DNA from: a virus
Taxonomy: Duplodnaviria; Heunggongvirae; Uroviricota; Caudoviricetes
DNA: 56,715 bases
Strand: one strand, 5' to 3'
IMG/VR virus record: IMGVR_UViG_2622736468_000005
Shown here: positions 1,296 through 56,715 of the stretch, in pieces
Position numbering within the stretch: position 1 is the stretch's first letter
Layout of the letters: each line of letters starts with the position of its first letter
Program-made: the position numbers and the translations under genes
Notes under the pieces: generated by a model
Told to the model about the DNA's origin: nothing
Databases searched by the model: none
Seen by the model: the letters and a program-made list of their open reading frames with translations, nothing else

Positions 1296-1964
1296 ATGGT
1301 GAAATTAATGAAAAAAAACACAGATGATGGGGCTAAAATTTACACACCACTTACCCTAAAGCTTTATGACTGGTGGGTTTTGGGAGTATCAAATCGGCTT
1401 GCATGGGGATGTCCTACAAAGGAACACCTTCTTCCACACTTTCTGGAACATTTAGGTAACAACCATCTGGATATTGGTGTTGGAACTGGGTTTTACCTTA
1501 CTCACGTACCTGAGAGTAGTCTGATATCTTTAATGGATTTGAACGAAGCTAGCCTGAACGCGGCATCTACAAGGGCTGGGGAATCAAAAATTAAACATAA
1601 AATTAGCCATGATGTTTTTGAACCTTATCCCGCGGCGTTACATGGTCAATTTGATTCCATTTCCATGTTTTACCTTCTTCACTGCCTGCCTGGAAATATA
1701 TCTACAAAAAGCTGTGTAATACGCAATGCGGCGCAGGCCTTAACTGACGATGGAACTCTATACGGAGCCACAATTCTTGGCGATGGAGTTGTGCACAATA
1801 GCTTCGGTCAAAAACTGATGCGCATTTACAATCAGAAAGGCATCTTTTCAAACACAAAAGATTCCGAAGAAGGCTTAACACATATACTCTCAGAGCATTT
1901 CGAGAATGTTAAAACCAAGGTTCAAGGTACTGTAGTAATGTTTTCCGCTTCAGGGAAAAAATAG
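1296..1964 (+). CDS. class I SAM-dependent methyltransferase (moron; substrate unknown)
   Basis: 222-aa ORF; glycine-rich motif I LDIGVGTGFY typical of Rossmann-fold SAM methyltransferases; gene is AT-rich relative to flanking tail genes and on the opposite strand. Confidence 0.6.
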   Translation: MVKLMKKNTDDGAKIYTPLTLKLYDWWVLGVSNRLAWGCPTKEHLLPHFLEHLGNNHLDIGVGTGFYLTHVPESSLISLMDLNEASLNAASTRAGESKIKHKISHDVFEPYPAALHGQFDSISMFYLLHCLPGNISTKSCVIRNAAQALTDDGTLYGATILGDGVVHNSFGQKLMRIYNQKGIFSNTKDSEEGLTHILSEHFENVKTKVQGTVVMFSASGKK

Positions 1965-1970
1965 CATCCA

Positions 1971-2187
1971 ACCGCAGCACGTTCTTGCTTAAGACGTGCT
2001 GCGGCATAATCCCAATGATTACTCCCTGACAGGGTTCGTAGGCCACTCAATATCAGGTGCAGTTGATGTATCAACACGGTTCAGCAACACCCGATACTTT
2101 TTCCAGGCTTCCAGCAATGAGGTTTCTTCCTCCGTTGCGATTTCCAGATCTACAGCATCCTGAAGTGGCGCAATATGCTCACTGGCT
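1971..2187. repeat. direct repeat copy 2 (3' end of intact tfa plus terminator hairpin)
   Basis: Matches 920..1135; perfect hairpin ccgcagcacg(ttcttgcttaaga)cgtgctgcgg immediately after tfa stop. Confidence 0.8.
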
Positions 2188-2603
2188 ACCTGCATCAGGC
2201 TGTTTTTTGTTTCTTCCGCCTCCCGGATCCGGAACAGTTTTTCTGCTTCCGTATCCTTCACCCAGGCTGTGCCGTTCCACTTCTGAAACTCCCCTTCCGG
2301 GGATAACCAGGTAACATTTTCCGGTAACGGACCGAGTTCAGAAATAAATAACGCGTCGCCGGAAGCCACGTCATAAACCGTTTTACCCCGATGATCTTCA
2401 ACGAGATGCCACGATGACTCATCACTGTTGAAAACGGCCACAAAGCCAGCCGGAATATCTGGCGGTGCAATATCGGTACTGTTTGCTGGCAGACCTGTAT
2501 GAGGCGGAATATATGCGTCACCTTCACCAATAAACTCATTGGTTCCAGCCAGTAGATTATAAATTTTTATGGTCCGTGATTGTTCACTCATTCTGAATAC
2601 CAT
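2019..2603 (-). CDS. tfa: tail fibre assembly protein (lambda Tfa-like chaperone)
   Basis: 194-aa ORF directly downstream of stf with overlapping start/stop (2603); position and size as in lambda stf-tfa. Confidence 0.8.
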
Positions 2604-14154: not shown

Positions 14155-17100
14155 TCAGCATTCCTCCGTCACGTCGCATGGACAGCATCACCGCCTGCAC
14201 CCGCTGGTCAATCAGTTGCACAAGGCTGCCCGCAGCTTCCGGCCCTATCTGGCCATTAGTCCCGTCATTCTGAATGGCGATATGGTAGACCGGGGAATAC
14301 ACCAGACCCGCACTGCCGTTCATACTGCCCACCGCTCGCACACCCAGCGAGCCATCCGCCGCCCGGGTCAGGGGCATAATGGCTTCAGGACCGGCCTCCC
14401 CCATAAGTCCCGCCCCTTTTGCAAAGGCAAAGTACGTGGGCGTATCCACAATACTGTTGCTGTACGCACTCAGGTTTGCCGAGGTAAACACGCCGCCTTT
14501 TGCATTGGCCACCGCCCCGCCCAACCAGTCACCAATGCTGCCGAGAAATCCTCCTGCACCGGACATACTATTTGCCGCCGTCCTGATCCCGTTGACAATC
14601 GCGGCATTCATAAGAACTTTTGATATTTCCTGCAGCACTGATGAGGCCCAGCTGCGCCATTCCACTTTATTCCCGTTCAGCACCTCCGTGATGTTATTCA
14701 CCATCCCTGAGATACCCTCCGTCGCAAGTTGTGCTGCCTGTGAGGCGTAATCGGACGCATTATCCACCCAGTTACTGAACCCCTCCTGCAGCCCTTTCTG
14801 CCAGTCCGCACGCTGCACATCCGATTCGGCATAAAAGGCTGCCTGGTCCTTAAGGCGTTCGCTCAGATACTGCGCGTTCTGTGCCCGTGCCTGTCTGTAA
14901 AAATCCTCACTGATATCCCCGGTCTGATACTGAGACTGAAGGTCCGCATCCTTCTGGCGGAAGCTGTCGCGGATCTGCTGCAACTCCCGCATGCGTTCCC
15001 TGGCTCGTTCTCCCTGCCCGTACCCCAGCAGTTCGGCTTCATTTGATGCACGCGCAGCCACATTATCATTCTTCAGGGTCTCTTCCCGGTACCGTAACTG
15101 CTCCCGGATTTTTTGCTGGTCAATCAGGGCCGCATTGCGCAGCAGTTCCTGCTTCTGTATCTCCGTCAGGGTTTTCAGTTCGCCCTGCGCTGTCTGGTAC
15201 TTCAGCTTCGCCAGTTCTGTATTCTGACCCGCCAGTGCCAGTTGCTCTTTCTGCTGCTTCAGTAGCCGGGAAAAACTGTCTTCCGCTTTTTCCGTCTCTG
15301 ATTTTCCACCCCGGGATTTGGGTTTATTCGCCTCGTTATTGCGCCAGGCTTCCAGGGCATTACTGATATAACGTTGTCTCGCCTCCTGATACGGATCACC
15401 CACAAAACCGAGGTCATCCGCCGCATACCCCAGCCGGGCACGCTCTTTTTCTTCCCCTTTCAGTCTGGACAGGGCCAGCTCACGCTCTGTTTTTGTCAGG
15501 GCACTCTGCTGTTTATCATCCAGAGTGGCCTGTGGCAGCCGTAACGGCACATTCACCAGTCCCTGCCGCTGCTGAAGCAGTTCATTACCCTGCCCCAGCA
15601 GACGGTTGAATTCCGTATGCTGACCGTTCATAACCAGCATGGACTGGTACACCTTATTCTGCTCTGCCGCCTGCTGACGAATTAACGCCACACGACGGTC
15701 TTCCAGCCCGGCAAGCACATCCTGAATGGACTGCGCTTTTTCCTGCATCTGTGCCAGACGGGACTGCTCAACGGCAAGCTGCTCTGTTGCCTGAGCAAGC
15801 CCTTCCGTTACGGTCTTCACCGAGGTCAGATGGTTTATCATGAATCCGTCACCGGTCGTCCAGCCCGGGTTCGCCAGAACATACTGATATCCTGCGATTT
15901 TTTCCTGCAGGGATTTCACCCGACTGGCCTGTTCATCAATCAGCCGGTTCTGCTCTGTCAGCGCCGCCCGTGTTCGTCCTTCATTATCTGAGGCTTCAGG
16001 CAAAGACATTGACGGCGTTTTATGCGCGATTTCATCTATCGTCAGTGCATACTGGCGCGCAGACTCCCTGGCCTGCTCCTGATTCTGGTACAGCGTGTAC
16101 CATGCTGCAGCCCCCAGCATCACCAGTCCGGGTACGCCACCAACCAGCCCCAGCGCACCGCTCATCAGACGTGAGCCCACCGCCGTTGTACTGTTCAGCG
16201 CATTCTGGGCGGCGCTTCTGGCAGCAATATTTCTGTTCAGGCGTTCCTGTGTGGCCGCCAGACGGGCCTCTGCAGCAATCTGCATCTCCGTCCCGCGGGC
16301 TGCCGCCACGGCCTGCTGAGCACGGTACACGGCTGCCCTTGCCCGCGCCGTGGCAATCTGCGTTCCCCTGAACTGTGCTTCCGCCAGTGCAACTTCATTA
16401 CGTGCAGCCGTCACAAGTCCTGCCGTGGCAGACATCGCTCCGGAGGCCATATTGCCAAAGTACCGGGCCACCCCGACGGCAACCAGCGCACCCACAGCTG
16501 TTGCCACATTATCAATCTGTCCGGCAACACCGTTCAGCATGCCGGAGAGCGTTTTTGTCACCCCGCTGGCCTCATTCGCACCGCCCACCCAGGCCATAAA
16601 GGCGTTTTCCACCTTTGTGATCCCGTCAGAGACCGTTTCTGGCATGGCGGCATATTCATCACGCAATGTCCCCAGCTGGCTGATTAACGCGGGCACGACT
16701 TTATCCGCCGTCAGTTGACCATCGTCCGCCATCGCCTTCAGATCTTTACGGGCCACGCCCATGCCTGCAGCCAGTGCACGAATGATCCGGTCACCACTTT
16801 CATTGACCGAATTAAATTCCTCACCGCGCAACACACCCTGTGCCAGCGCCTGGCTGAACTGGGTGATCACCGAACCCGCCTCAGCCGTACTGGCACCGGA
16901 GATTTTCAGCCCCGTGGAAATGGCCTCCGTCACCTTCAGTACATCACCGGCACTGTAACCATATTCACGCATCGAGGCAGCCGAACGGGCAAACAGGGCC
17001 GCATTATCCGAAAAAGCGGTACCTGTCCGCTGACTGATATCCATCAGCACTTTCTGTGATGACGAAAATTCATCGGATGACTGTGATGCCTGTTTCAGAC

Positions 17101-31433: not shown

Positions 31434-33302
31434 TTATGATGATGCCGGTGCATTTATCTCCAGCACCAGACTTTCTATCTCAACGCCATACGCTGCATTT
31501 TTTGTAACATCCGTCAGCGTCAGCGCATTCAGCCCCAGTGTCAGACTGTCTTTTATGACCTGGAATGCCGGGCCAACCAGTCCATTCAGTTTCGGAGTAA
31601 CCGTGGCACTGCCGGCGGTGAACACCAGCTCCAGCGTCTGCCAGTCGTTACTGTAATTCCCGAACTCGCCCAACTTTGTGTTTCCGGCTTTCTTGTGATG
31701 CATCAGATTCAGTTTGCCGTCTGTGGTCTGGGTGAAGAACGACATCAGGAACGGGTTACCAGTCCCGGTCATCGCCACGACGTCAGGTAACGCTACATCG
31801 GTATACAGATAAATTCCCAGACCGAACTGGTTGTTGGTCAGTGCGCCTGACAGTCGAAACTTACAGCTCAGTCTGCCACCCCGTGTCAGCAGGGAGACTG
31901 CGTCATCCACCGGGCGCGTCAGGGACCAGGCTTTATTGCTCTGCTTGGCGATCTTAAATACACCATCTGACAACTGAATTCCGCCATTCTTAATGCTCCA
32001 GCCCTGCGCAGCAGCATCTCCGGCTGTCGGCAACAGGGAGATTGTGCGTACGGATGCATCTTCAGACGGCCCCGATGGCGTGTCGCCGCCGGGCGAGGGT
32101 TTGATTTCCGGTGCCTTACCACTGATGAAGGCTGAGGTGCGACCGGCTACGTTCAGAATAGCAGTTGCCATACGATCCGGAATAATGCTCCTGCGCGCCC
32201 ATGAACTGAAATGTGTCGGGCGGTTTGATGATACCTGGTTTCCATTCGTTCTCGATGCCGCACCGTAATATCCTGATGCCGGAATATCCGGATCTTCTGC
32301 CGGTGCGTTAGTGGCGGTATTGACGCCGTTACCGTCTGTCATGAAGGGCACAAAATAAACGCCCTCACTCTCCCTGTTTTTATACCCTCCGTACACGGTG
32401 TCGTACTGGGTAGCGTATGTATTTTTCCAGTAATACGTCGTGTCACCACAAATCCACGGCACATCTGCAGCACTGCCACCATGACACTGCGCGTTAAACA
32501 CAGTGAGGTCAGCACGAAACTGCTTCAGCATGGCTGTAAACAGCGCAGGTTGCTGTGCGTAGGTGGCGGCGCTCATGTCAAACTCTCCCTGCATCCAGCA
32601 CACCGCCAGCAACACATTTTTCGGGTTCTTCTGTAATGCAGCTTTAGTGCGCGCAATCAGGTCCTGATATAACGGTTTACCCACACCCCAGCGTGCCGAA
32701 TCCTGGCTGGCCCCCGTGTCCGCACTGAATGTCCCCTCCGCGCCCTGGGTGAATGCCGAACCACCACGACAGCATGGTACCAGCAGGATCCCCGCGTTAT
32801 TCGGGATATACGGAAGCAGTTTTTTGGCAATATGTAAGCCCTGGCCGACACAGCCGTACTGCCCTTTGCTCAGGTCTGCCTTCGGATGATTCAGCGTACT
32901 CATATCCTGCACATCATGCAGGCAGTGGTCGGCCGGAATAATATCGTTATATCTGCAGGCAGCCCCACCCGGCGTCACTGTACTGCGGCGCGCCAGCTGT
33001 TTAATGCGCGGATCCGGAGCATCGTATGAATCCGGCAGCGGAAGCCCTTCACCGTAAGCCATGGCATTGGACTGCCCGGCCAGTACGATGACGTAGTACC
33101 ACTCCGGCTCAGTTGCACCACTGACGACCACATCACCTTCTGCTGCAATCGCCTGCATCAGGGTATAAGGGGTTATGGCCACCGGACTACCAAACGGCTG
33201 CCAGCCCTCTTTCAGTTTATGTGTCAGCTTTTCCGCAAGATCTGACGGCGACGCCGCCCTGACAACATCATAGTGTTTAAATGCCATGGTTCTTTCCACC
33301 AT
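31434..33302 (-). CDS. prophage-encoded sialate O-acetylesterase-like protein (NanS-p / YjhS family, SGNH-type)
   Basis: 622-aa ORF with VIVLAGQSNAMAYG esterase motif; located between tRNA/Q region and lysis genes, as nanS-p is in Stx-type prophages. Confidence 0.65.
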   Translation of the reverse strand: MVERTMAFKHYDVVRAASPSDLAEKLTHKLKEGWQPFGSPVAITPYTLMQAIAAEGDVVVSGATEPEWYYVIVLAGQSNAMAYGEGLPLPDSYDAPDPRIKQLARRSTVTPGGAACRYNDIIPADHCLHDVQDMSTLNHPKADLSKGQYGCVGQGLHIAKKLLPYIPNNAGILLVPCCRGGSAFTQGAEGTFSADTGASQDSARWGVGKPLYQDLIARTKAALQKNPKNVLLAVCWMQGEFDMSAATYAQQPALFTAMLKQFRADLTVFNAQCHGGSAADVPWICGDTTYYWKNTYATQYDTVYGGYKNRESEGVYFVPFMTDGNGVNTATNAPAEDPDIPASGYYGAASRTNGNQVSSNRPTHFSSWARRSIIPDRMATAILNVAGRTSAFISGKAPEIKPSPGGDTPSGPSEDASVRTISLLPTAGDAAAQGWSIKNGGIQLSDGVFKIAKQSNKAWSLTRPVDDAVSLLTRGGRLSCKFRLSGALTNNQFGLGIYLYTDVALPDVVAMTGTGNPFLMSFFTQTTDGKLNLMHHKKAGNTKLGEFGNYSNDWQTLELVFTAGSATVTPKLNGLVGPAFQVIKDSLTLGLNALTLTDVTKNAAYGVEIESLVLEINAPASS

Positions 33303-33547
33303 CTGAAAAATGATTCTTTAAAATACCTGACATGTAATACAGAAAAAACACAAAACCATACCTTAAATAAAAACCTCATCATCAAGCAGATATGCATGGA
33401 TAAACTACAAGACGAGATATAAACCACCCTGCATTTAAATAAACAATAAACAACATCAGAAAAATAATTCTGCTCTATGGTTTACAATCAAAAATATCAT
33501 TTATACTTTTCAGAACATCACCAGCAAGGCATAAACAAGGAAACTAA

Positions 33548-33883
33548 ATGAAGTGGATTGTGATTGATACAGTTATCCAGCCATCATGCGGAATATCTTT
33601 TTCAGTCATATGGAGTAAAATAAAATTAATAATCTGGTATCAATCGGATGCTTTCTTACCTCCTGAAAGTATATTTACACTGACTCACACAGGCATCATG
33701 CTCAATAACAAAGTGCTACCTGTAACCATTTACAACGTAGTACCATTCAATAAAACATTCTGGAATTTAATCAAAAACAGCCAGGAATGCCCTACAAATA
33801 CAGATAACGTATTGAATGAATGCTTTAATAACCGTTGCACTCTGCAAATATGTCCTTATGGGCTAAAACAACAAAGTCCATAA
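33548..33883 (+). CDS. hypothetical Cys-containing protein, very AT-rich orphan gene
   Basis: 111-aa ORF; upstream TTTACA-17 bp-TATACT promoter-like sequence and AAGGA RBS; no recognisable family. Confidence 0.35.
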
Positions 33884-33918
33884 GCAGTTTACTCACATCT
33901 GACAAAATCAATATAAAC

Positions 33919-34140
33919 AGCCCCTCCGGAGAGGGGCTGGAGAGTGGCGCTATGTGCCATTGCATGGTGCCGGGTGCCTCCCGGTGAATTCAGTACCAGC
34001 ACCTGAATCCGCGATTATCCCATATACCTACTCGCTGATTACCCCTCCGCACAGGGGGATTCACCATGCGAAATTTTTTAACAAACTTCCCGCCGGCCAG
34101 ACAATAATCGCCAGCCTGAATTATGAGCAACGTGGCATTT
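33919..34140. repeat. repeat element copy A (~220 bp) beginning with perfect 20-bp palindrome agcccctccggagaggggct
   Basis: Shares palindrome and several conserved blocks (gcatggtgcc..cctcccggt.aattcag, gggggattcaccatgcga, ttttaacaaa, cagacaat) with copy B; compensatory changes in stems. Confidence 0.55.
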
Positions 34141-34381
34141 TACGGGAAAACTGTTTTCTGCAGTAAAAAGGCCCGCCGGAGCGAGCCTGGAAGGATAGCG
34201 GTCATGTGATGCCGGTTTCCCGGTAACTCAGCATCGGTATCTGAGTCAACGTTTTCTCTACTGGGTCATTTCCGATACGTTCCGCCTTCCGGCAGACTTT
34301 CATCACGTCAGAAAATATAGCACCCTGAGTAACAGGACAGTACTCAGAATTCAGGAAACTGTGACACATCCTGCACAGAAA

Positions 34382-34600
34382 AGCCCCTCCGGAGAGGGGC
34401 TGAAGTATAGCCTAATTTCTGTCTGTCGCATGGTGCCAGGGGCCTCCCGGTAAATTCAGCCTGTCTACTGAATTTGCATGTTCTCTGGATCATACACTTT
34501 GCCAGATGCCCCGCCGCTGAGGGGGATTCACCATGCGATGTAATTTTTAACAAATTCTCCGGCAGCCAGACAATCATCAAGCTGTGGAATTGTGAGGTAT
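34382..34600. repeat. repeat element copy B (paralog of 33919..34140)
   Basis: Same palindrome and conserved blocks; hairpin aaattcag-cctgtcta-ctgaattt. Confidence 0.55.
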
Positions 34601-34749
34601 TTAAAAATTTCAACGGGTAACTGATACCCTGCTAATCGCCTGATGCTTTCTTTTTCAGCAACGGGAAAGCAACAACCACACACCCGCCACCAAAACACCA
34701 TCAGACAGCACCGACATTATCCGGCTGCTGAAGTCCACCATCACCACCA

Positions 34750-34826
34750 GAAACAACAGGAGTGCAACCACAGCTGCTTAGAAGGCAATTGCTCTGTCCG
34801 GCTGAGCTAACAACGCATGATGCAGA
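34750..34826 (-). other. degenerate tRNA-Arg(UCU)-like remnant
   Basis: 5' half has tRNA-like D-arm and CCTTCTAAG anticodon loop; T-arm and acceptor 3' strand do not pair. Confidence 0.3.
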
Positions 34827-34829
34827 TAA

Positions 34830-34906
34830 TGGACCGCCATCGGGGACTTGAACCCCGCGCAGCCAGCTTCGAAGGCTGGCGCTCTATCCCGATGAGCTAA
34901 TGGCGG
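34830..34906 (-). tRNA. tRNA-Arg (anticodon read as TCG)
   Basis: 77-nt cloverleaf on minus strand: acceptor CCGCCAT/ATGGCGG, D-arm GCTCATCGGGATAGAGC, anticodon loop CTTCGAA, T-arm CGGGGTTCAAGTCCCCG, 3' TCCA. Confidence 0.7.
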
Positions 34907-34913
34907 TATGTGA

Positions 34914-34989
34914 TGGTGGCCCTTGCTGGATTTGAACCAGCGACCTGGCGATTATGAGTCGCTCGCTCTCACCACTGAGCTAAAGGGCC
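34914..34989 (-). tRNA. tRNA-Ile2 (anticodon CAT, ileX/ileZ-like) or tRNA-Met
   Basis: 76-nt minus-strand sequence GGCCCTTTAGCTCAGTGGTGAGAGCGAGCGACTCATAATCGCCAGGTCGCTGGTTCAAATCCAGCAAGGGCCACCA; 7-bp acceptor stem, CTCATAA loop. Confidence 0.8.
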
Positions 34990-35038
34990 GGAAGCAGAAT
35001 AATAATGGTGCGTAATTAATTCTGCAATCTCATCCGTT

Positions 35039-36088
35039 TCAAACGATTAAATCCTGAACTTCCCTGACTGTCTGCTCAAAACGTCCGGTCTCCAGTTCAA
35101 CGCCAATCGCACGACGCCCGAGCGCCAGTGCAGCTTTTACCGTTGAACCTGAGCCCATAAAAAAATCTGCAACCAGGTCACCCGGACGACTGCTTGCGCT
35201 GATTATCTGCTGCAGCATTTCTGCCGGTTTTTCGCACGGATGTTTCCCGGGATAGAACTGCACCGGTTTATGTGTCCACACATCCGTGTACGGCACCTGC
35301 GCCGTCACACCAAAATACCGCCGCAGATGCTTATATTCACTCTGCAGCTCCACATACTGCCGGTTCAGTGACGTATACGTATCCACCAGCTGGTGGTGGG
35401 GCTTTTCCAGTTCACCGCGCTGATGTTTCTCTTCTGCCACCCGGGCAAACAGCGACTGTAATTTCAGATAATCGCTTTCGTTCGGTAGCTGCCACTGACT
35501 GGCACTGAACCAGTGCGACACCATGTTTTTCTTTCCTGTGGCATCTGCAATCTGTTTTGCCGTTATCCCCAGGGCCGCGCGCGCATCACGAAAGTAAGAA
35601 ATCAGCGGGGCCATCACATGCTGTTTCAGTGCACTGCCCTTCGCCGCATACCCGGCATCTTTCGGACGATACGGCCCCTGATAATGTTCCGCGAACAGAA
35701 TGCGCTCTGTGGCGGGGAAATACGCCCGCAGGCTTTCCTTGTTGCATCCGTTCCAGCGTCCGGACGGCTTCGCCCAGATAATATGGTTCAGCACACTGAA
35801 GCGTTCACGCATCATGATTTCGATATCAGATGCCAGGCGATGACCACAGAACAGGTAAAGACTTCCGGCAGGTTTCAGCACCCGCCAGAACTGCGCCAGA
35901 CACTGGTCCAGCCACTTCAGGTAATCATCGTCGCCCTTCCACTGGTTATCCCAGCCCTCAGGCTTCACTTTAAAGTACGGCGGGTCCGTGACTATCAGGT
36001 CAACAGAATTTTCGGGTAACGACCGGATAAATTCCAGGCAGTCGGCGTTGATTAACTCACAACTGGATATTTTTACAGTATTAAGCAT
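35039..36088 (-). CDS. orphan DNA methyltransferase (N6-adenine/N4-cytosine type, DPPY motif)
   Basis: 349-aa ORF with catalytic DPPY (LIVTDPPYF) and C-terminal SAM-binding FxGxG (FFMGSGST); no adjacent restriction enzyme. Confidence 0.8.
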   Translation of the reverse strand: MLNTVKISSCELINADCLEFIRSLPENSVDLIVTDPPYFKVKPEGWDNQWKGDDDYLKWLDQCLAQFWRVLKPAGSLYLFCGHRLASDIEIMMRERFSVLNHIIWAKPSGRWNGCNKESLRAYFPATERILFAEHYQGPYRPKDAGYAAKGSALKQHVMAPLISYFRDARAALGITAKQIADATGKKNMVSHWFSASQWQLPNESDYLKLQSLFARVAEEKHQRGELEKPHHQLVDTYTSLNRQYVELQSEYKHLRRYFGVTAQVPYTDVWTHKPVQFYPGKHPCEKPAEMLQQIISASSRPGDLVADFFMGSGSTVKAALALGRRAIGVELETGRFEQTVREVQDLIV

Positions 36089-36662: not shown

Positions 36663-37484
36663 CTATCGCGTTACCCTCTTTAACTGCCGCTCCGCCCATG
36701 CCTCTTCAATGTCAAACCGAACCACCAACGTATCGTAAAAGCGTTTCACTGATTTTTTCCACGTATCAAGCGTGATAGCACTCGTCACTTTGCATATGGC
36801 ATTAAATGCCTCCGTTGATGGCAGCCTTTCACAGCCACGACCACCACAACGCTGGCAATCTCTGATAACAGGCATACCACGTTTTACCGACTCTTCACGA
36901 TGAATGGCGACACCACGCCCACGGCAATCCTTACAGGCGGTGGAAACCTCACCCTTTCCGCCACACTCCGGACAGGCAACTTTTACCACCTCCCTGACTT
37001 TTTTCCATTCTTCCCAGTAAGACGGATACACGCCTTTTGTGCACTTTGCCCACACTGGTGGCTTACCATCCGGATACTGGATCTTGTTTGTAAAAACCTC
37101 GCTTTCAATAAATTTTTTTCCGTGACAGCAGGGGCACTGTTTTTTGCTCGCCGCGCTACGGGCATAATCTTCAAACGCATACGAAGCCATAATGCGCATC
37201 ACTACCGGTTTTATTTCTGCCGGAAGTTTTCTCAACGCCGCCACACGATCGCACCGACTGAGTGCATAATCTGCCAGTAATTCTGTTGCCCGCGCCCTGT
37301 CATTCATACTGATGCCCATTTTCCCCAGGAACGCAGAAACCCCCATCTCAGCCCGATTCTGTGTCATGCCCTGCGCGGCCATCACATCAGTGATACTCAG
37401 CGCATCTTTTGACGTTGAGGCCGATGCATCGGTCAGGCCAGGGGATTTTGGGGAGTAGTATTTCGGTAAATCTTCCAGTTTCAT
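36663..37484 (-). CDS. Q: late-gene antiterminator Q (zinc-binding type)
   Basis: 273-aa ORF with multiple CxxC pairs (CPCCHGK, CPECGGKG, CKDCRGRG, CQRCGGRG); positioned after rusA and before late operon. Confidence 0.7.
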   Translation of the reverse strand: MKLEDLPKYYSPKSPGLTDASASTSKDALSITDVMAAQGMTQNRAEMGVSAFLGKMGISMNDRARATELLADYALSRCDRVAALRKLPAEIKPVVMRIMASYAFEDYARSAASKKQCPCCHGKKFIESEVFTNKIQYPDGKPPVWAKCTKGVYPSYWEEWKKVREVVKVACPECGGKGEVSTACKDCRGRGVAIHREESVKRGMPVIRDCQRCGGRGCERLPSTEAFNAICKVTSAITLDTWKKSVKRFYDTLVVRFDIEEAWAERQLKRVTR

Positions 37485-37855
37485 TTTTTGACCTGCTCTT
37501 CATGCATTATGGGGTAAATCTTCACCCCCATACGTCCACCAGATACTGGCTGACCACGAACGATATTGATTTCATCAAACTGCTCATCGTCCATTAACAC
37601 TCCCGCATGCGTCAGCGCATCCAGCGGTGCTTTCAGGATATTGTCCAGGTCGCGACGACGCTTATCCGGTGGCTCTGCAATCACCTTTATCGCCAGCCTT
37701 CCGGACAGGCTTAATTTCAGCCGCTGCTGGCGAACAATAAGCGCCACAGCCCGGCGATAACGCTTTCCCTCCTCCGAGATAAAATATGTGCTGCCACGGC
37801 GTCGCCAGTAAGTGTTCACCGTCGGCGGGTAAGGTAAAACCAAATCTATGAGCAT
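37481..37855 (-). CDS. rusA: Holliday junction resolvase RusA
   Basis: 124-aa ORF; N-terminus MLIDLVLPYPPTVNTYWRRRG and RRRDLDNILKAPLDAL match RusA family. Confidence 0.85.
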   Translation of the reverse strand: MLIDLVLPYPPTVNTYWRRRGSTYFISEEGKRYRRAVALIVRQQRLKLSLSGRLAIKVIAEPPDKRRRDLDNILKAPLDALTHAGVLMDDEQFDEINIVRGQPVSGGRMGVKIYPIMHEEQVKK

Positions 37856-38132
37856 CAGTCACCTCTTTTACCCAAGCACGCCAGTTGCAAAGGCGTGATC
37901 AAGAAAACGAAAAATTAAATCAACCTGAGAACCATGCTTTTCTTCGAACGCCAGAGGATCCGCATGAAGCTCGTTGTGATGCTCCCGACACAGCGGTAGC
38001 GTGAAAATATCGTGAGATTTTGTCCCCATTCCGCCCTGACCATGACCAATCAGGTGATGGGGATCGTCGGCTGGCTTATGAACCGCCCCGGGAATCCTGG
38101 AGACTAAACTTCCTGAGAAAGAGGTAAACAGG

Positions 38133-38459
38133 ATGACTAAAAATACTCGTTTTTCCCCCGAAGTCCGTCAACGGGCAGTCCGTATGGTTCTGGAAAGTCA
38201 GAGCGAATATGACTCACAATGGGCGACAATTTGTTCCATTGCTCCAAAGATTGGCTGTACGCCGGAGACTCTGCGTGTCTGGGTTCGCCAGCATGAGCGG
38301 GATACCGGGGGCGGTGATGGAGGGCTCACCACCGCTGAACGTCAGCGTCTGAAAGAGCTGGAGCGTGAAAATCGTGAACTGCGCCGCAGTAACGATATCC
38401 TTCGCCAGGCTTCCGCTTATTTTGCGAAGGCGGAGTTCGACCGCCTCTGGAAAAAATGA
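38133..38459 (+). CDS. IS629 transposase OrfA (HTH)
   Basis: 108-aa [25 protein letters not shown]...; slippery A AAA AAT at its end. Confidence 0.85.
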
Positions 38460-39346
38460 TGCCACTGCTGGATAAGCTGCGTGAGCAGTACGGGGTCGGA
38501 CCGCTATGCAGCGAACTGCATATTGCCCCGTCAACGTATTACCACTGTCAGCAACAGCGACATCATCCGGATAAACGCAGTGCCCGTGCGCAGCGCGATG
38601 ACTGGCTGAAGAAAGAGATACAGCGCGTATACGATGAAAATCACAAGGTATACGGTGTGCGTAAAGTCTGGCGTCAGTTGTTACGGGAAGGTATCAGAGT
38701 GGCCAGATGCACTGTGGCACGTCTCATGGCGGTTATGGGACTTGCCGGTGTTCTCCGGGGTAAAAAGGTCCGTACGACCATCAGCCGGAAAGCCGTTGCC
38801 GCAGGCGACCGCGTAAACCGTCAGTTCGTGGCAGAACGACCTGACCAGCTGTGGGTGGCTGATTTTACTTACGTCAGCACATGGCAGGGCTTCGTCTATG
38901 TGGCGTTCATCATTGATGTGTTTGCCGGATACATCGTGGGGTGGCGGGTCTCATCGTCCATGGAAACGACATTCGTGCTGGATGCACTGGAGCAGGCGTT
39001 ATGGGCCCGTCGACCGTCCGGCACGGTCCATCACAGTGATAAAGGTTCTCAGTATGTATCGCTGGCCTACACACAGCGGCTTAAGGAAGCCGGATTACTG
39101 GCATCAACAGGAAGTACAGGCGACTCGTATGACAACGCGATGGCGGAGAGCATCAATGGTCTTTACAAAGCGGAGGTAATACACCGTAAGAGCTGGAAAA
39201 ACCGTGCAGAAGTGGAACTGGCCACACTCACGTGGGTGGACTGGTATAACAATCGACGATTGCTGGAAAGGCTGGGCCATACTCCTCCGGCAGAAGCAGA
39301 AAAAGCTTATTATGCTTCCATCGGAAACGATGATCTGGCAGCCTGA
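38456..39346 (+). CDS. IS629 transposase OrfB (DDE integrase domain)
   Basis: 296-aa ORF overlapping orfA in -1 frame; DDE-type catalytic core. Confidence 0.85.
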
Positions 39347-40229
39347 GTTCACAGATAAAACACTCTCCAGGAAACCCGGGGCGGTTCACTTACCACAACA
39401 CGCACACGGCTGTGTCTTCACCCAGCGTGTGTATTTCTCGTTAACCCAGCGGCGACGTTTAGGTCGTTTCATGAAAGATTCCGGAGACTCAGGATCAACG
39501 GCAATGCTGACCACCGTCTCTTCCTGTGGCGGGTTTTGCTGGTGGGCGTGAGGCAGCGGCGCAAGATTTTTTGTGCGCTGCTTCAGTATGCTGGTGGCGG
39601 TCTGCTCTCCCGGTACGATGTCGCTTTCACGGTACATTGAGCGGATTTTTTCCGCACGCAACCCCAGCGAACGACGTAATACCGCTTCCGGTAGCGCGTC
39701 CGCCACCTGATTGCGGACCGCCCACCAGGATAATTCAGCCAGCGATAATTCCCGTTCCTGCGAGCCATTCATTGCATGGCGTATGACGTCAATCATCCAT
39801 GCAGACAGGTTTTGGTGAGCAAGTTGCCCGAGTGATTCGGAGGTCTGGTCGCGCAGCTGGTTGTCGCAGTGCCAGCACAACACCATTGCGCCGGTACCAT
39901 AACGGTGAATGACGGTTTCACTGTGGTGATAATCGCCGTGTGGCCACTGGCAGGATTTAACATGGCGCAGTAACCAATCAGACAATGCGCCAGCGCCACC
40001 AGCAGCACGAATCACTCGTTCGTCGCTGAAAAATGGCAGTAATGATTTATCCTCCGCCAGCGGCTGGCGAACGGCAGGAACGACCCCGGACGGCAGATTA
40101 CGCATGCTTTTCGGTTCCGGCTCCACCAGTACCCGGGTATTGTGGAATACCGGCATGGATTCACGGCCCGGCTTAACGATCACCAGCCCGAGTTCCGGTA
40201 CCAGAACAGGTCGAAGTAATACCCGCACG

Positions 40230-40514
40230 TTACCTCCAGATGCGTTGCTGGAATGTGCGGGACGGACGCGGTGGGCGTTCGGAATAAGGGAGTCTGACGT
40301 AGATTATCCAGTGACGATAATCGAGGGTGAGGGCTTTCCTAAACTCATATCCACGTCTGCGGTAGTTATGAATCAGCCATTCGGCCTGTTCTTCAGTACA
40401 GGGATCGTGCTGATACCAGTCATATTTGAATGCGTGAGAACGCCACCCGTGCCTGCTGGCAAAGGCAGAATCAGAATTGCGAAATTTGAAATTATGCGCC
40501 ATTGTCATCTCCAA
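40230..40514 (-). CDS. hypothetical protein
   Basis: 94-aa track ORF; probable start at internal MAHNFKF; unknown family. Confidence 0.3.
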   Translation of the reverse strand: MEMTMAHNFKFRNSDSAFASRHGWRSHAFKYDWYQHDPCTEEQAEWLIHNYRRRGYEFRKALTLDYRHWIIYVRLPYSERPPRPSRTFQQRIWR

Positions 40515-40891: not shown

Positions 40892-41998
40892 TCAAACAAT
40901 CTGGAAAATATTTCTTGGATTTGTAATAGGTCTGTTGATGGAGAACAACTCACGAATTAAATCTTGGCTCAAGCCAGTTTTCATAAGAATTCTTAGCCAG
41001 GTTGCATCATCCAGCATTTCAATCGCCTCGGCCAGCATGCCGGGTTCTTCAGGGCGCAAAAGTTCATCACCAGGTTCAACTCTCGTATACCCTCTGGAAT
41101 TAAGATGCATATAGCCAGTTCTTGCCTGTTCCTGGGTCAATAAGCCTAATGCGCTGGCTCGATAAATACACATTTTAAGGCTGATTTTCCATCTAAGTTT
41201 AAATTCAACCAGAGCATTCCAGTCGAATTGCTTACCTCGTATTCGTGGAAATTCTTTAATGAAAGATAACCTGGGAACTAATAAGGCGCTCGAAAAGTGA
41301 TCGGCTTGTGATTCCGTAAGTTTATCACCTGTCGTTATGCCCTCATGCATTACTAAATGCCCTAATTCATGACCTAAATCAGAGCGAAATCTACATATGC
41401 TTTTTTTAACATTGTTCCTGATGATAACAGGCCTGTTATTGTGAACAGTAAAAGCATCAACACGATCATCGACTCCCGTAACATGCGCAACGATTACCCC
41501 TAAACTCTCCGCCAATTTAACCATTGATGATATAGGGCCAAGACCTAAATTCCAGGCACGGCGACAATCTTCTGCCACTCGCTCAATATCATTCGGAGTA
41601 AGTAATTCAGCCCCTGGGTGCTCCGGTATGTTAACGTCAGGAAATTCGATTTCACCTTCAACAGCAGAAATTATAATATTAAGAATCTCAGCCCTGGCCA
41701 ATACACTATTAGTCAGCGTTTGAGTCCTGGACTTCTTACTCCGAAAATGGCAGACATCACTTTCCAGAGCGTATTTTCGTTCAGTAAAAAGAAAACTGGA
41801 CTTAATCATAAGCGCTGAAGATATTAACTCAAGACATTGCTCCGATGGCCTGCACCCCTTCTCCAGTTTGCTAACGAATTGCTTTGTCTTGCCAATTTTT
41901 TCGGCTAACTCTTCACAAGAAAGCCCAACAGCCATTCTCGCTAGTTTGAGCTTATCACCCCGATACTCAGTGAAGTTATTCACCTGATGTTCCATCAC
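40892..41998 (-). CDS. HTH-XRE DNA-binding domain fused to ImmA/IrrE-family zinc metallopeptidase (M78, HEXXH)
   Basis: 368-aa ORF; N-terminal HTH (LKLARMAVGLSCEELAEKIGKTKQFVSKLEKG), central HEXXH (SDLGHELGHLVMHEG); AT-rich gene. Confidence 0.7.
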   Translation of the reverse strand: MMEHQVNNFTEYRGDKLKLARMAVGLSCEELAEKIGKTKQFVSKLEKGCRPSEQCLELISSALMIKSSFLFTERKYALESDVCHFRSKKSRTQTLTNSVLARAEILNIIISAVEGEIEFPDVNIPEHPGAELLTPNDIERVAEDCRRAWNLGLGPISSMVKLAESLGVIVAHVTGVDDRVDAFTVHNNRPVIIRNNVKKSICRFRSDLGHELGHLVMHEGITTGDKLTESQADHFSSALLVPRLSFIKEFPRIRGKQFDWNALVEFKLRWKISLKMCIYRASALGLLTQEQARTGYMHLNSRGYTRVEPGDELLRPEEPGMLAEAIEMLDDATWLRILMKTGLSQDLIRELFSINRPITNPRNIFQIV

Positions 41999-42626
41999 TG
42001 CTCACATCCAAATCTTTATCCTTCGTACGCCGACGAAGAGGCACCTTATTAATCTCCGCTTCGTCAGGGAGTGTGTTATAATCAAGAGGCATAAGCGGCA
42101 TCGATGCTGTAGATTGATGAGAAACTATACTAATCTGAGCACCATAAGTATTAAATCCAACAAGAGCTACCTCCCAACGAGGCAGTGTGGACTCTAATTC
42201 ACCATCGCCCTCTTCGGATAAAAAAGGCTCAGCTATGACTCGCCATGTAATATCTTGCTCAGCCTCAACATCACCAAACAATGAGAGCTGCTCATACTCT
42301 ACTTTATTTCGACGCAGACGATGTTTCTTTTTGGGGTTATTAATGCAATCTTTGGTAAATTGTAGCGGAACTTTATTTAAAGCAACTACATAGTCCAACC
42401 CCTTGGAAATCATCTCAAGGCCAGGAATTGCATCTTCATTTTGAATAAGATGATTTCTGACCCAATCATAAGCCCTTACACCTTCAGACCAGTTGCTGTC
42501 TAATGCGTGCTTATGATAGTACAGCTGCTCAAGTACGTTAGCGATCTCCGCCAACAAGTGGCGAACATAGTTTTCAGCAAGATAAGGTTGAAATTCCCAA
42601 CAAGGAGCTAACTGATTTTCATTCAT
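41976..42626 (-). CDS. hypothetical protein, upstream partner of HTH-ImmA/IrrE gene (unknown family)
   Basis: 216-aa ORF overlapping the next gene by 23 bp (operon); promoter-like TTGACA...TATGTG upstream; AT-rich. Confidence 0.5.
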   Translation of the reverse strand: MNENQLAPCWEFQPYLAENYVRHLLAEIANVLEQLYYHKHALDSNWSEGVRAYDWVRNHLIQNEDAIPGLEMISKGLDYVVALNKVPLQFTKDCINNPKKKHRLRRNKVEYEQLSLFGDVEAEQDITWRVIAEPFLSEEGDGELESTLPRWEVALVGFNTYGAQISIVSHQSTASMPLMPLDYNTLPDEAEINKVPLRRRTKDKDLDVSSDGTSGE

Positions 42627-52822: not shown

Positions 52823-55294
52823 ATGAGTAAGGTCTTTATTTGCGCTGCTATTCCTGACGAACTGGCAACAAGGGAAGAAGGCGCTGTGGCTGTAGCCACA
52901 GCCATTGAAGCTGGCGACGAACGCCGTGCTCGAGCAAAATTTCACTGGCAATTCCTGGAACATTATCCGGCTGCTCAGGACTGCGCTTATAAATTTATTG
53001 TCTGCGAGGATAAACCTGGCATACCCCGCCCTGCCCTCGATTCATGGGATGCTGAATATATGCAGGAAAACCGCTGGGATGAGGAGTCTGCTTCCTTTGT
53101 CCCGGTTGAGACTGAATCAGATCCGATGAACGTCACTTTTGACAAGCTGGCCCCTGAAGTACAGAACGCTGTCATGGTTAAGTTCGACACATGTGAAAAC
53201 ATCACCGTTGATATGGTTATTAGCGCACAGGAATTGTTGCAGGAAGACATGGCAACATTCGACGGACATATCGTTGAAGCGTTGATGAAAATGCCAGAAG
53301 TTAACGCCATGTATCCGGAGCTTAAGCTGCATGCCATCGGGTGGGTTAAGCATAAATGTAAGCCTGGTGCCAAATGGCCCGAAATTCAGGCAGAGATGCG
53401 CATCTGGAAAAAACGTCGCGAAGGTGAACGCAAGGAAACCGGAAAATACACGTCTGTTATTGATCTCGCCCGCGCCAGAACCAATCAACAGCACAGTGAA
53501 AATTCAACAGGAAAAATCAGCCCGGTCATTGCTGCCATTCATCGCGAATACAAGCAGACATGGAAAACACTGGATGACGAACTGGCCTACGCTCTCTGGC
53601 CTGGTGATGTGGATGCCGGAAACATTGACGGCAGCATCCATCGCTGGGCAAAAAATGAAGTTATCGACAACGACCGCGAAGACTGGAAGCGTATCTCGGC
53701 ATCAATGCGCAAACAGCCTGATGCCCTTCGCTACGACCGCCAAACTATTTTTGGCCTTGTCCGTGAGCGTCCGATCGACATTCACAAAGATCCCATAGCA
53801 CTGAACAAATATATCTGCGAATACCTGACGACAAAGGGCGTGTTTGAGAATGAAGAAACAGACCTGGGCACTGTTGATGTTCTCCAGTCATCAGAAACAC
53901 AAACTGATGCAGTGGAAACTGAGGTATCTGATATCCCAAAAAATGAAACCGCGCCGGAAGCTGAACCATCTGTAGAGCGTGAGGGGCCGTTCTATTTCCT
54001 CTTCGCAGATAAGGACGGAGAAAAATGCGGTCGCGCAAACAAACTTTCTGGTCTGGATAAGGCACTGGCTGCTGGCGCCACTGAAATCACAAAAGAAGAA
54101 TATTTTGCCCGAAAAAATGGCACATACACGGGCTTACCGCAAAATGTAGATACCGCTGAAGATTCAGAACAACCAGAGCCGATAAAAGTTACCGCTGACG
54201 AAGTAAACAAAATTATGCAGGCAGCCAATATCAGCCAGCCTGACGCCGATAAGTTGCTTGCTGCATCACGTGGTGAATTTGTTGAAGGGATTAGTGACCC
54301 GAATGATCCGAAATGGGTTAAGGGGATCCAGACCCGCGATTCTGTGAACCAGAACCAGCATGAATCGGAACGGAACTACCAAAAAGCGGAACAAAACAGC
54401 CCAAATGCGTTACAAAACGAGCCAGAAACGAAACAGCCTGAACCAGTGGCGCAACAGGAAGTGGAAAAAGTCTGCACCGCCTGCGGTCAGACCGGCGGCG
54501 GCAACTGCCCTGATTGTGGCGCGGTGATGGGCGACGCAACATACCAGGAAACATTCGATGAAGAGTATCAGGTTGAAGTTCAGGAAGATGATCCGGAGGA
54601 AATGGAAGGCGCTGAACATCCACACAAGGAGAACACTGGCGGCAATCAGCATCACGATAGCGATAATGAAACTGGCGAGACGGCAGATCGCTCAATTAAG
54701 GTGAACGGTCATCACGAAATCACATCCACCAGCAGGACGTGTGACCATCTAATGATCGACCTTGAAACCATGGGAAAAAATCCTGATGCCCCGATCATCT
54801 CAATAGGTGCAATATTTTTCGATCCGCAAACCGGAGATATGGGACCGGAATTTAGTAAGACTATCGATCTGGAAACTGCTGGCGGAGTCATTGATCGGGA
54901 CACCATTAAATGGTGGCTTAAGCAATCACGCGAAGCGCAATCTGCCATTATGACCGATGAAATCCCGTTAGATGATGCACTGTTACAATTGCGGGAATTT
55001 ATCGACGAAAACTCCGGTGAATTTTTTGTTCAGGTTTGGGGAAATGGAGCCAACTTCGACAACACGATTTTGCGCCGTTCATACGAACGGCAGGGGATCC
55101 CCTGCCCGTGGCGTTACTACAACGATCGCGATGTACGCACAATCGTTGAGCTGGGGAAAGCCATAGACTTCGATGCCAGAACGGCTATTCCATTCGAAGG
55201 TGAGCGCCATAATGCACTTGATGACGCCCGTTACCAGGCAAAATACGTTTCAGCTATCTGGCAAAAACTGATCCCAAATCAGGCTGATTTTTAA
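52823..55294 (+). CDS. large phage exonuclease (YdfE-like N-terminus, zinc ribbon, C-terminal DEDDh 3'-5' exonuclease domain)
   Basis: 823-aa ORF; C-terminal ~180 aa with DEDD exonuclease motifs (MIDLETMG, FDNTIL, HNALDDA); CxxC...CxxC ribbon. Confidence 0.65.
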   Translation: MSKVFICAAIPDELATREEGAVAVATAIEAGDERRARAKFHWQFLEHYPAAQDCAYKFIVCEDKPGIPRPALDSWDAEYMQENRWDEESASFVPVETESDPMNVTFDKLAPEVQNAVMVKFDTCENITVDMVISAQELLQEDMATFDGHIVEALMKMPEVNAMYPELKLHAIGWVKHKCKPGAKWPEIQAEMRIWKKRREGERKETGKYTSVIDLARARTNQQHSENSTGKISPVIAAIHREYKQTWKTLDDELAYALWPGDVDAGNIDGSIHRWAKNEVIDNDREDWKRISASMRKQPDALRYDRQTIFGLVRERPIDIHKDPIALNKYICEYLTTKGVFENEETDLGTVDVLQSSETQTDAVETEVSDIPKNETAPEAEPSVEREGPFYFLFADKDGEKCGRANKLSGLDKALAAGATEITKEEYFARKNGTYTGLPQNVDTAEDSEQPEPIKVTADEVNKIMQAANISQPDADKLLAASRGEFVEGISDPNDPKWVKGIQTRDSVNQNQHESERNYQKAEQNSPNALQNEPETKQPEPVAQQEVEKVCTACGQTGGGNCPDCGAVMGDATYQETFDEEYQVEVQEDDPEEMEGAEHPHKENTGGNQHHDSDNETGETADRSIKVNGHHEITSTSRTCDHLMIDLETMGKNPDAPIISIGAIFFDPQTGDMGPEFSKTIDLETAGGVIDRDTIKWWLKQSREAQSAIMTDEIPLDDALLQLREFIDENSGEFFVQVWGNGANFDNTILRRSYERQGIPCPWRYYNDRDVRTIVELGKAIDFDARTAIPFEGERHNALDDARYQAKYVSAIWQKLIPNQADF

Positions 55295-55358
55295 TGTTCA
55301 ACCCCGGTCGTTGCCCACCAGCTATAGTGGCGGCGACCATGATTAGCGAACGACGCTC

Positions 55359-55607
55359 ATGGCAAGACTTATTCTGCTCACTGAGTGGGCAAAAGAGGAA
55401 TTCAGTGAACCGGTCCCTACTCCGAGTACGTTAAGTAAATACGCTAAAGCCGGAATGATATTTCCTCTCCCCAAAAAAGTTGGAAGACGCTGGCGAGTGG
55501 ATCCGCAAGCTCGCTTTGTCGGAATGGTAAACAAGCCGGAGGTGATCGCCACAGATCACCCTGCTTTGAAGAGGATACTGGAAGATGGCGCGCCCGCGAA
55601 AATATAA
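55359..55607 (+). CDS. xis: excisionase (Xis-like)
   Basis: 82-aa ORF immediately upstream of and overlapping integrase; MARLILLTEWAKEEF...KVGRRWRV motif. Confidence 0.6.
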   Translation: MARLILLTEWAKEEFSEPVPTPSTLSKYAKAGMIFPLPKKVGRRWRVDPQARFVGMVNKPEVIATDHPALKRILEDGAPAKI

Positions 55608-56715
55608 AACCGATGTTCCGGGATTATCTCCGTATTTTGACAAAAGAAATAACAAAGTTTACTGGCGTTACAGGCATCCCATAACAGGCAAAAATCACGG
55701 TCTCGGCAGTATTGACCAGAAACTGGCAGAAACTATTGCAGCAGAAGCGAACAGCCGTCTTGCCCGGCAGCAAATGGAACAAATGCTCAGTCTGCAGGAG
55801 AAAATTATTAGTGATACCGGCGGTTCATCAACCGTTACCATTTTTCTGAATAATTACAGAAAAATTCAACAGGAAAGATATGAAAACGGCGAGATCAAAC
55901 TCAACACGCTGAAACAGAAAGCGGCCCCTCTCAGGGTATTTGATGAACGTTTTGGCACCAGACCGTTAGATGCCATAACCGTAAAAGATGTGGTATCAGT
56001 ACTGGAAGAGTACAAGGCCAGAGGACATAACAGAATGGGACAAATTTTCAGGAAAGTACTGATCGATGTTTTCCGGGAAGCTCAGCAAACGGGCGATGTC
56101 CCGCCAGGCTTTAACCCTGCAGAATCGGCAAAAAAACCGCAGGTGCGGATATCAAGACAGCGACTGACTTTTGATGAGTGGATGATGATTTATAACGCAG
56201 CGGAAAAGAATGGTTACTTTTTACAGCGCGGTATGCTGCTGGCACTGATGACAGGCCAGCGCCTTTCAGATATTTGCAAAATGCAATTTTCGGATATCCG
56301 GGATGGTTATCTTCATGTCGAACAGCAAAAAACAGGAACCCGGATTGCCATCCCTCTGGCTCTGCGTTGCGATAAATTAAATCTCACCCTGGATGATGTA
56401 GTGTCATCCTGCCGCGATTGCGTTCTTAGTCCGTGGCTATTGCACCACCATCACGCGAAAGGGACAGCTAAGCGCGGCGGGATGGTTAAGCCAGCAACAT
56501 TAACCGTTGCATTTAAAAAAGCCCGGGATTCTGTGGATTACAACTGGCGTGCTAATGGCACCCCACCCTCTTTCCATGAGCAGAGATCTTTATCAGAGCG
56601 ATTGTTCAGAGAGCAGGGGGTTGATACCAAAATTTTGCTAGGCCATTCGAATCAAAAAATGACCGATATTTACAACGATGTACGCGGTAAGGAGTGGAAA
56701 AAACTGGTCATTTGA
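55585..56715 (+). CDS. int: tyrosine site-specific integrase (lambda Int family)
   Basis: 376-aa ORF; N-terminal MARPRKYK arm-binding region; C-terminal catalytic region with R...HxxR...Y (LLGHSNQKMTDIY). Confidence 0.85.
   Translation: MARPRKYKTDVPGLSPYFDKRNNKVYWRYRHPITGKNHGLGSIDQKLAETIAAEANSRLARQQMEQMLSLQEKIISDTGGSSTVTIFLNNYRKIQQERYENGEIKLNTLKQKAAPLRVFDERFGTRPLDAITVKDVVSVLEEYKARGHNRMGQIFRKVLIDVFREAQQTGDVPPGFNPAESAKKPQVRISRQRLTFDEWMMIYNAAEKNGYFLQRGMLLALMTGQRLSDICKMQFSDIRDGYLHVEQQKTGTRIAIPLALRCDKLNLTLDDVVSSCRDCVLSPWLLHHHHAKGTAKRGGMVKPATLTVAFKKARDSVDYNWRANGTPPSFHEQRSLSERLFREQGVDTKILLGHSNQKMTDIYNDVRGKEWKKLVI

Follow-up and report, generated by a model that had tools for sequence, protein, structure and literature searches.

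In a prophage of Escherichia coli, a gene of the DUF968 family is broken into two pieces by an insertion sequence, and the locus raises three linked questions: which element caused the break, whether the break arose by a recent and simple insertion, and whether the element says anything about the host. The stretch of DNA that was analyzed (56,715 nt, here called the window) consists of prophage DNA throughout and has a Rha-family regulator on its left side and an integrase on its right. Positions 27000 to 51000 are collinear with a prophage of strain NCTC86, with 99.8% identity over about 22.7 kb, and the DUF968 gene belongs to the nin region of an E. coli prophage that is Qin/lambda-like. The NCTC86 prophage carries an intact DUF968 gene (WP_001265091.1) and the gene order hypothetical gene, DUF968, rusA, antiterminator Q. 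We attribute the split gene of the window, with a probability of about 95%, to the recent simple transposition of a single IS629 (IS3 family) copy into the prophage DUF968 gene. The features of the locus are compiled in Table 1.

Table 1. Features of the interrupted DUF968 locus and its neighborhood (positions in the window)
Feature	Position	Strand	Basis
IS629 (IS3 family), complete, 1310 bp	38079..39388	+	Boundaries, inverted repeats and sequence identity
IRL, left terminal inverted repeat, 5′-TG start	38079..38103	+	25 nt, 92% complementary to 39364-39388
IRR, right terminal inverted repeat, CA-3′ end	39364..39388	+	Repeat finder and reading-frame check
Left target-site duplication copy, CTTA	38075..38078	.	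Adjoins IS left end
Right target-site duplication copy, CTTA	39389..39392	.	Adjoins IS right end
orfA, 108 aa, helix-turn-helix DNA-binding protein	38133..38459	+	Pfam HTH_Tnp_1, E 7.4e-13
orfB, 296 aa from ATG, DDE catalytic domain	38456..39346	+	Pfam rve E 4.8e-28, HTH_21
OrfAB fusion transposase, predicted, 404 aa, via programmed -1 frameshift	38133..39346	+	Exact RefSeq match
U_UUU_G, probable slippery site	38420..38424	+	Frame arithmetic, ALIL position, annotation-style fusion, PMC5009743 architecture
ALIL pseudoknot, frameshift stimulator (predicted)	38414..38530	+	Rfam RF01497
5′ DUF968 fragment, codons 1-280, GTG start at 40228	39389..40228	-	Frame and Pfam
3′ DUF968 fragment, codons 281-348 and stop	37868..38078	-	Frame and Pfam
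rusA, Holliday-junction resolvase, next downstream gene of same operon	37481..37855	-	Pfam RusA E 2.6e-17; NCTC86 annotation
Late-gene antiterminator Q, downstream of rusA	36663..37484	-	Pfam Antiterm E 1.3e-49; NCTC86 annotation

Members of the IS3 family have imperfect terminal inverted repeats, an orfA in frame 0 followed by an orfB in frame -1, and a DDE catalytic domain. The element of the window starts with TGAACCGCCCCGGG and finishes with CCCGGGGCGGTTCA (script check; region read, 37700 to 40400), and its two 25-nt repeats, located with a repeat finder, are complementary at 23 of 25 positions (TGAACC... to ...GGTTCA). A length of 1310 bp together with imperfect repeats ending in TG...CA places it within the IS3 family (about 1.2 to 1.55 kb), as does its 4-bp CTTA duplication, since target-site duplications of 3 to 4 bp are the rule in this family. 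The 14-nt terminus TGAACCGCCCCGGG occurred exactly twice in the 56.7-kb window, once per end, against a chance expectation of 0.02; the window thus holds a single IS629 copy, and the ends do not represent a chance match. The assembly across the insertion was taken as correct. A first-pass annotation had described a complete 1310-bp IS3-family element with terminal inverted repeats and intact orfA and orfB, and this description was borne out by the boundaries, the repeats, the protein domains and the transposase profile match described below.

Both reading frames of the element are open. The orfB frame lies at -1 relative to orfA and is open from 38393, giving an overlap of the two frames at 38393-38459. 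Exact-sequence lookup recovered the orfA product on at least 1000 contigs and the orfB product on 68 contigs. The predicted catalytic triad of OrfB consists of D136, D195 and E231, with spacings of 59 and 36 residues (DD(36)E), and K238 follows seven residues past E231; this is the DD(35)E-type arrangement with an additional K/R that is found in the IS3 family. An OrfAB fusion that was built with a shift at 38420-38423 is identical to WP_375155244.1 ('IS3 family transposase'), present on 22 contigs, so that OrfA, OrfB and OrfAB of the window each exactly match a protein recorded elsewhere. In contrast, an OrfAB that was fused at the A6 run (38451-38456, just before the orfA stop) gave no record by exact-sequence lookup. 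A trial OrfAB with this A6-run junction scored 366.5 bits against NCBIfam NF033516 (cut-off, 160) and covered the whole profile. Because the fusion at the upstream site equals a RefSeq protein while the A6-run fusion is unrecorded, we place the -1 frameshift probably at 38420-38424, a placement based on annotation practice and published architecture. The A6 run is a possible second, minor shift route. Chen and Hu, who studied the frameshift products of IS629 in 2006, reportedly identified T4G as the OrfAB shift site and a second, A-rich motif as the source of a minor product.

The region around the candidate slippery site also carries the stimulatory signal expected for such a shift. Within U_UUU_G, the UUU constitutes an orfA-frame codon (38421-38423), and the motif is followed, 5 nt downstream, by stem 1 of a predicted ALIL pseudoknot. 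This pseudoknot matched Rfam family RF01497 over model positions 1-117 of 117, with 120.2 bits (gathering score, 50; E 5e-32). Stem 1 is formed by 38429-38433 with 38441-38445, and its apical loop (GUUCGA, 38435-38440) could base-pair with UCGGAC (38496-38501), a complementary segment of the stem-loop 2 internal loop. A frameshift signal of this ALIL-pseudoknot type is said to have been described for IS3411 by Mazauric et al. in 2008. The likeness to IS3411, which we drew via RF01497 and the published architecture, comprises the match over the whole model (120 bits), a shift motif 5 nt ahead of stem 1 and the complementarity between the apical loop of stem 1 and an internal loop about 55 nt downstream. 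Compared to the Rfam consensus, the loop-loop pairing of the window shows one compensatory exchange (C-G to U-A) and one wobble (U-A to U-G). ALIL pseudoknots stimulate -1 frameshifting in IS3411, and the same has been described for at least 27 further IS elements (PMC5009743). Two overlapping reading frames, the ALIL signal and the fusion protein matches together point to the orfA/orfB organization of the IS3 family, and with no visible defect in coding capacity, the copy is apparently transposition competent.

The interrupted gene was reconstructed by removing the element and one CTTA in silico. This yielded a minus-strand ORF of 1047 nt and 348 codons with a single terminal stop, in agreement with the initial description of a reading frame that resumes past the element. 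The outer ends of the split gene are 37868-40228. In its present state, the truncated ORF spans 39386-40228 (minus strand; 280 codons) and is closed by a TGA made up of the three terminal bases of the IS, while the 3′ fragment is cut off from the promoter-proximal part of the gene. Comparison with uninterrupted alleles, which the first-pass annotation had proposed as a check, showed that the reconstituted ORF is 100% identical, ungapped and over its full length, to intact annotated DUF968 genes in at least 25 genomes, NCTC86, ABU 83972, VR50 and ML35 among many E. coli strains. The exact 348-aa protein was found on at least 1000 contigs by exact-sequence lookup. Since the intact alleles match the excised sequence, the empty site held exactly one CTTA and the duplication amounts to 4 bp, as had been claimed. 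Likewise, the complete match over 1047 nt means that neither flank has changed since the insertion. DUF968 alleles of 349 aa were considered as possible footprints of imprecise excision, in which 3 nt left behind would keep the frame; this idea was rejected, as the extra residue is a linker Gln at about position 230.

The identity of the target as a DUF968 gene is established at the level of the protein profile. The reconstituted 348-aa protein scored 256.7 bits against Pfam DUF968 (PF06147; cut-off, 27.8; E 1.4e-76), above the gathering threshold and with positions 1-171 of the 171-position profile aligned at residues 160-345. Pfam HNHc_6 gave 22.4 bits at residues 270-318, which is under its cut-off of 26.6. 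The same region contains the motif C275-x2-C278, H286-H287 and C309-x2-H312-H313-N314-x2-H317, which is invariant in five alleles. K-12 YbcO aligned to the motif region with weak pairwise similarity (E 4e-4), and this alignment spans the insertion point. A search of PDB sequences with the DUF968 protein returned no significant match, only chance zinc-finger matches. Within the His-Me finger (HNH) superfamily, DUF968 and DUF1364 have been assigned to group 7, together with YdfU of Qin and YbcO of DLP12 (PDB 3g27), and RusA and Q have been noted as usual neighbors (PMC5714182). DUF968 proteins with a C-terminal zinc-finger HNH motif have also been reported (PMC4118853). The earlier assignment of the gene as DUF968/HNH type is therefore upheld, with a probable HNH or His-Me finger membership that is well supported by the motif and the published classification. 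The order nuclease-rusA-Q of the window corresponds to ybcO-rusA-quuD in DLP12; the members of this family are putative nucleases, and the window gene differs from YdfU and YbcO in being split by the IS.

The insertion separates the parts of the predicted metal finger. The break falls after codon 280 (K280), between the CxxC pair and the His-His, so that the 5′ fragment retains C275-x2-C278 and loses the catalytic histidines, which are held, as H286-H287 along with C309...H317, by the 3′ fragment. With the break at this position, neither fragment should be able to form the metal finger, and the putative nuclease would have been lost through the insertion.

IS629 belongs to the IS3 group of the IS3 family, with a prototype (X51586) from Shigella sonnei. 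For the window copy, this name is based on how depositors annotated a close copy and on the similarity to copies from Shigella. The copy differs at 4 of 1310 nt (99.69% identity) from a mobile_element that was annotated as 'IS3 family IS629' in LC567824 (Stx2a phage Stx2_499), for which the depositors recorded a 4-bp duplication of its own, CCAG. It likewise differs at 4 nt (99.69%) from the copy on S. sonnei plasmid pFORC11.1 and at 2 nt from a copy inside the int gene of phage 21. The near-identity to reference IS629 is thus indirect, given through annotated and Shigella copies, and on this basis the original designation as IS629 holds. None of the collections searched contained the element at 100% identity, with top matches of 99.9% (E. 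coli) and 99.8%, so that the genome behind the window lies outside these collections. In structure, nothing separates the window copy from IS629: the 1310-bp length, the 25-nt imperfect repeats, the TG...CA ends, the 108-aa orfA and 296-aa orfB in frames 0/-1 and a duplication within 3 to 4 bp are all shared. The differences are 1 to 4 private single-base changes relative to the closest copies found and an insertion site that was found nowhere else in the collections searched.

By convention, IS copies above about 95% nucleotide identity are treated as isoforms, and IS1203 (IS1203v) is an IS629 isoform reported from E. coli O157:H7 and O111. The window copy shares with IS1203 the length, the organization, the ends and the ALIL element; however, it differs from the IS1203-type copy of a pO157 plasmid at 49 of 1310 nt (96.26% identity), with 4 OrfA and 7 OrfB substitutions and a single IRL change (GGGAAT versus GGAAAT). 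Published work distinguishes IS1203-like, Shigella-like and O26-like sub-types of IS629 that are 4 to 5% apart, counts IS1203 and IS3411 as IS629 isoforms and reports that O157:H7 carries two of the sub-types, the IS1203-like among them (PMC3271280). Because the copy is 4 nt from the IS629 and S. sonnei copies and 49 nt from the IS1203 type, and in view of these sub-types, it is by nucleotide distance IS629 in the strict, Shigella-like sense. The reported duplications of IS629 are 3 to 4 bp long (PMC3271280), and six other IS629-family copies that we examined had a 3-bp duplication in five cases and a 4-bp duplication in one. The 4-bp CTTA is therefore in the normal range for IS629, though it is the rarer size.

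These distances also bear on the host. The first-pass annotation had read IS629 as a hint at an EHEC/O157-like genome, and a related proposal is that the element would be better named an IS1203 or IS3411 isoform and hence marks an O157/EHEC background. Such a naming could appeal to the treatment of IS1203 and IS3411 as isoforms and to the label 'IS3-like element IS1203 family transposase', which PGAP gives to related copies in O157:H7 genomes and to the pO157 plasmid copy; furthermore, Stx-converting phages account for most IS629 matches in the phage collection. We consider it very unlikely, as the pO157 IS1203-type copy is much more distant than the Shigella and annotated IS629 copies and the excess of Stx phages reflects deposition. 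In addition, IS629-family sequences were present in 4262 of the 5426 complete E. coli genomes (full-length copies in 3043), and plasmids from Shigella, Salmonella, Klebsiella and Enterobacter carried them as well. For both halves of the prophage, the closest relatives were strains whose names in the match tables bear neither O157 nor another STEC serotype label, and the nearest prophage backgrounds came from NCTC86 and other human isolates. Being prophage DNA only, the window offers no chromosomal marker of the host. Within the stretch that is collinear with NCTC86, the annotation shows no stx gene, and iraM occupies the position between the tRNA genes and a nanS-p-like esterase. Given a widespread element, a Shigella-type copy, unlabelled relatives and the lack of an annotated stx, an EHEC/O157 host background is not supported. 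With the family spread across most E. coli, IS629 should not be used as an O157 marker.

A different objection concerns the event itself: the split DUF968 gene could be a long-standing pseudogene or could have arisen by recombination between two IS copies. This is conceivable for IS629, copies of which are often sites of rearrangement, with matching duplications kept by only 21 of 47 copies in O157 (PMC3271280). At the present locus, however, the same CTTA is found on both flanks, the rejoined flanks equal the intact alleles over their full length, the surrounding region is collinear with the NCTC86 prophage and the reading frames of the IS are undamaged. Mismatched flanks and lost collinearity were both tested for and neither was found, which leaves this alternative with a negligible probability. 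None of the results contradicts a simple insertion. The earlier reading of a relatively recent transposition agrees with the zero changes in the flanks and with the absence of the exact insertion from all 5426 complete E. coli genomes. The 30-nt left junction gave zero matches in metagenome, viral and species-representative genome contigs. Unchanged flanks and the absence of the site from the collections searched thus point to a recent, lineage-private event. Exact matches to the 280-aa product in GCA_047963285.1 and SRR12158194 were evaluated as potential instances of the same insertion and discarded, since they are partial genes at contig ends; these contigs end with ...GGTAAGC and thus have the C of the intact allele after TAAG instead of the T of the IS.

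The recent simple insertion of IS629 would have proceeded along the route described for the IS3 family, with IS911 and IS3 as examples (IEE preprint 10.1101/2023.06.07.543989). By analogy with this family, ribosomes would shift to the -1 frame at U_UUU_G (38420-38424), stimulated by the ALIL pseudoknot, and thereby make OrfAB, and the element would move by a copy-out-paste-in mechanism with a circular intermediate in which the ends are abutted. The target would be cut with a 4-bp stagger, and its repair would leave CTTA on both sides. The insertion is an already known kind of event, its components belong to well-described families and nothing deviates from expectation, so that its significance beyond annotation is small. 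In annotation, a single pseudogene with an IS629 interruption should cover the DUF968 fragments 39389-40228 and 37868-38078, and the element at 38079-39388 should be entered as a mobile element whose transposase is frameshifted. Being found in no collection searched, the insertion could help to mark the strain or its lineage, much as in IS-printing. From the intact element it also follows that an IS629 copy without visible defect is present in the host.

IS629-family copies were also detected at other positions of the same block. The best complete E. coli match to 37868-40228 was strain N25, in which the IS is located in rusA instead. A copy inside rusA was also found in O157:H7 FRIK804, and KL53 and O166:H15 JNE21-003 carry a copy inside DUF968 at a position other than that of the window. 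The copies of KL53, JNE21-003, N25 and FRIK804 are flanked by 3-bp duplications (GAT, CGG, CCA and TCC), in contrast to the 4-bp CTTA of the window, and they represent independent events. The orientation that these four insertions share with the window copy was dismissed as a signal; it is an artifact of a search that joins same-strand pieces only.

In the window, the IS is inserted in antisense orientation into the early-right operon, ahead of rusA and Q, because of which polarity on Q is possible and the expression of both genes may drop. Extending this thought, an IS in antisense orientation that separates the replication module from rusA-Q might cut Q expression and help to lock the prophage in a noninducible, domesticated state, and the recurrent DUF968-rusA insertions in the four strains would then stem from selection or from a preference for this region as a target, not from chance. 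We regard this scenario as unlikely. A scan for promoters and terminators around IS629 found no more of them than occur in shuffled sequence and was hence uninformative. The repeated insertions in the DUF968-rusA block fit the reported concentration of IS629 in prophages, which harbor 62% of the IS629 copies in O157 (PMC3271280).

Independent 1,310-bp insertions of the IS629 family were found in the DUF968-rusA block of four further complete genomes, and the target duplication measured 3 bp in all four (GAT in KL53, CGG in JNE21-003, CCA in N25, and TCC in FRIK804). These repeated hits could reflect a preference for the region, selection, or simply a bias of IS629 toward prophages. The draft contigs from GCA_047963285.1 and SRR12158194 terminate in ...GGTAAGC, 1 base beyond the insertion point of the window, and the contig-end base is that of the uninterrupted allele in both. 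Because the contigs end there, their partial products equal the 280-aa fragment of the window; the breaks may stem from a further insertion or from an assembly path that forks where DUF968 alleles are paralogous.

Of the four NCTC86-type records that match best, three (two of which bear the name NCTC86) have a different IS3-family insertion in this prophage. It is missing from the window and from CP019778, the fourth NCTC86-type record; thus, insertion sequences have targeted the prophage in at least two lineages or stocks.

Coordinates of insertions, contig ends, and neighboring features (L numbers denote comparison sequences, with local coordinates)
Feature	Sequence	Position	Remark
IS629 family	L009 (KL53)	1733-3042	in DUF968
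IS629 family	L010 (O166:H15 JNE21-003)	1501-2810	in DUF968
IS629 family	L001 (N25)	3002-4311	in rusA
IS629 family	L011 (O157:H7 FRIK804)	1001-2310	in rusA
Partial DUF968 gene	L003 (GCA_047963285.1)	4167-5007	contig end
Partial DUF968 gene	L004 (SRR12158194)	313-1152	contig end
Other IS3-family insertion	L002 (NCTC86 LT601384)	15202-16430	at about window 43500
ALIL loop GUUCGA	window	38435-38440
ALIL loop UCGGAC	window	38496-38501
DNA methyltransferase	window	35039-36088	tRNAs follow
tRNA-Arg(tcg) and CAT-anticodon tRNA	window	34830-34989	between methyltransferase and iraM
iraM	window	about 33548-33883	by homology to NCTC86
nanS-p-like SASA esterase	window	31434-33302	next after iraM
hokD	window		beyond the HTH/M78-peptidase and 216-aa genes; by homology to NCTC86
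823-aa RecE-like protein, then tyrosine-integrase-like ORF	window	52823-56715	ORF reaches window end

Within the IS629 copy of the window, all six pairs of the ALIL loop-loop interaction are kept. The Rfam consensus pairs GCUCGA with UCGAGC, whereas here GUUCGA faces UCGGAC, the differences being a double change (C-G to U-A) plus a single wobble (U-A to U-G). This preserved pairing lends a little covariation support to the pseudoknot.

Directly upstream of the DUF968 block lies a gene for a 368-aa HTH and M78-peptidase (ImmA/IrrE-like) protein, overlapped by a 216-aa gene without a family match. The stretch at 40892-42626 resembles a moron-type or accessory module within the nin region. At the right end, the 823-aa protein matched exodeoxyribonuclease VIII (RecE) only partially (285 bits versus a cutoff of 1,269), and the attachment site of the prophage and the host flank are located beyond the window. 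The region at 31434-36088 displays a layout like that of Stx phages, without toxin genes. Its CAT-anticodon tRNA was assigned to Met by ARAGORN, whereas RefSeq lists it as Ile in NCTC86.
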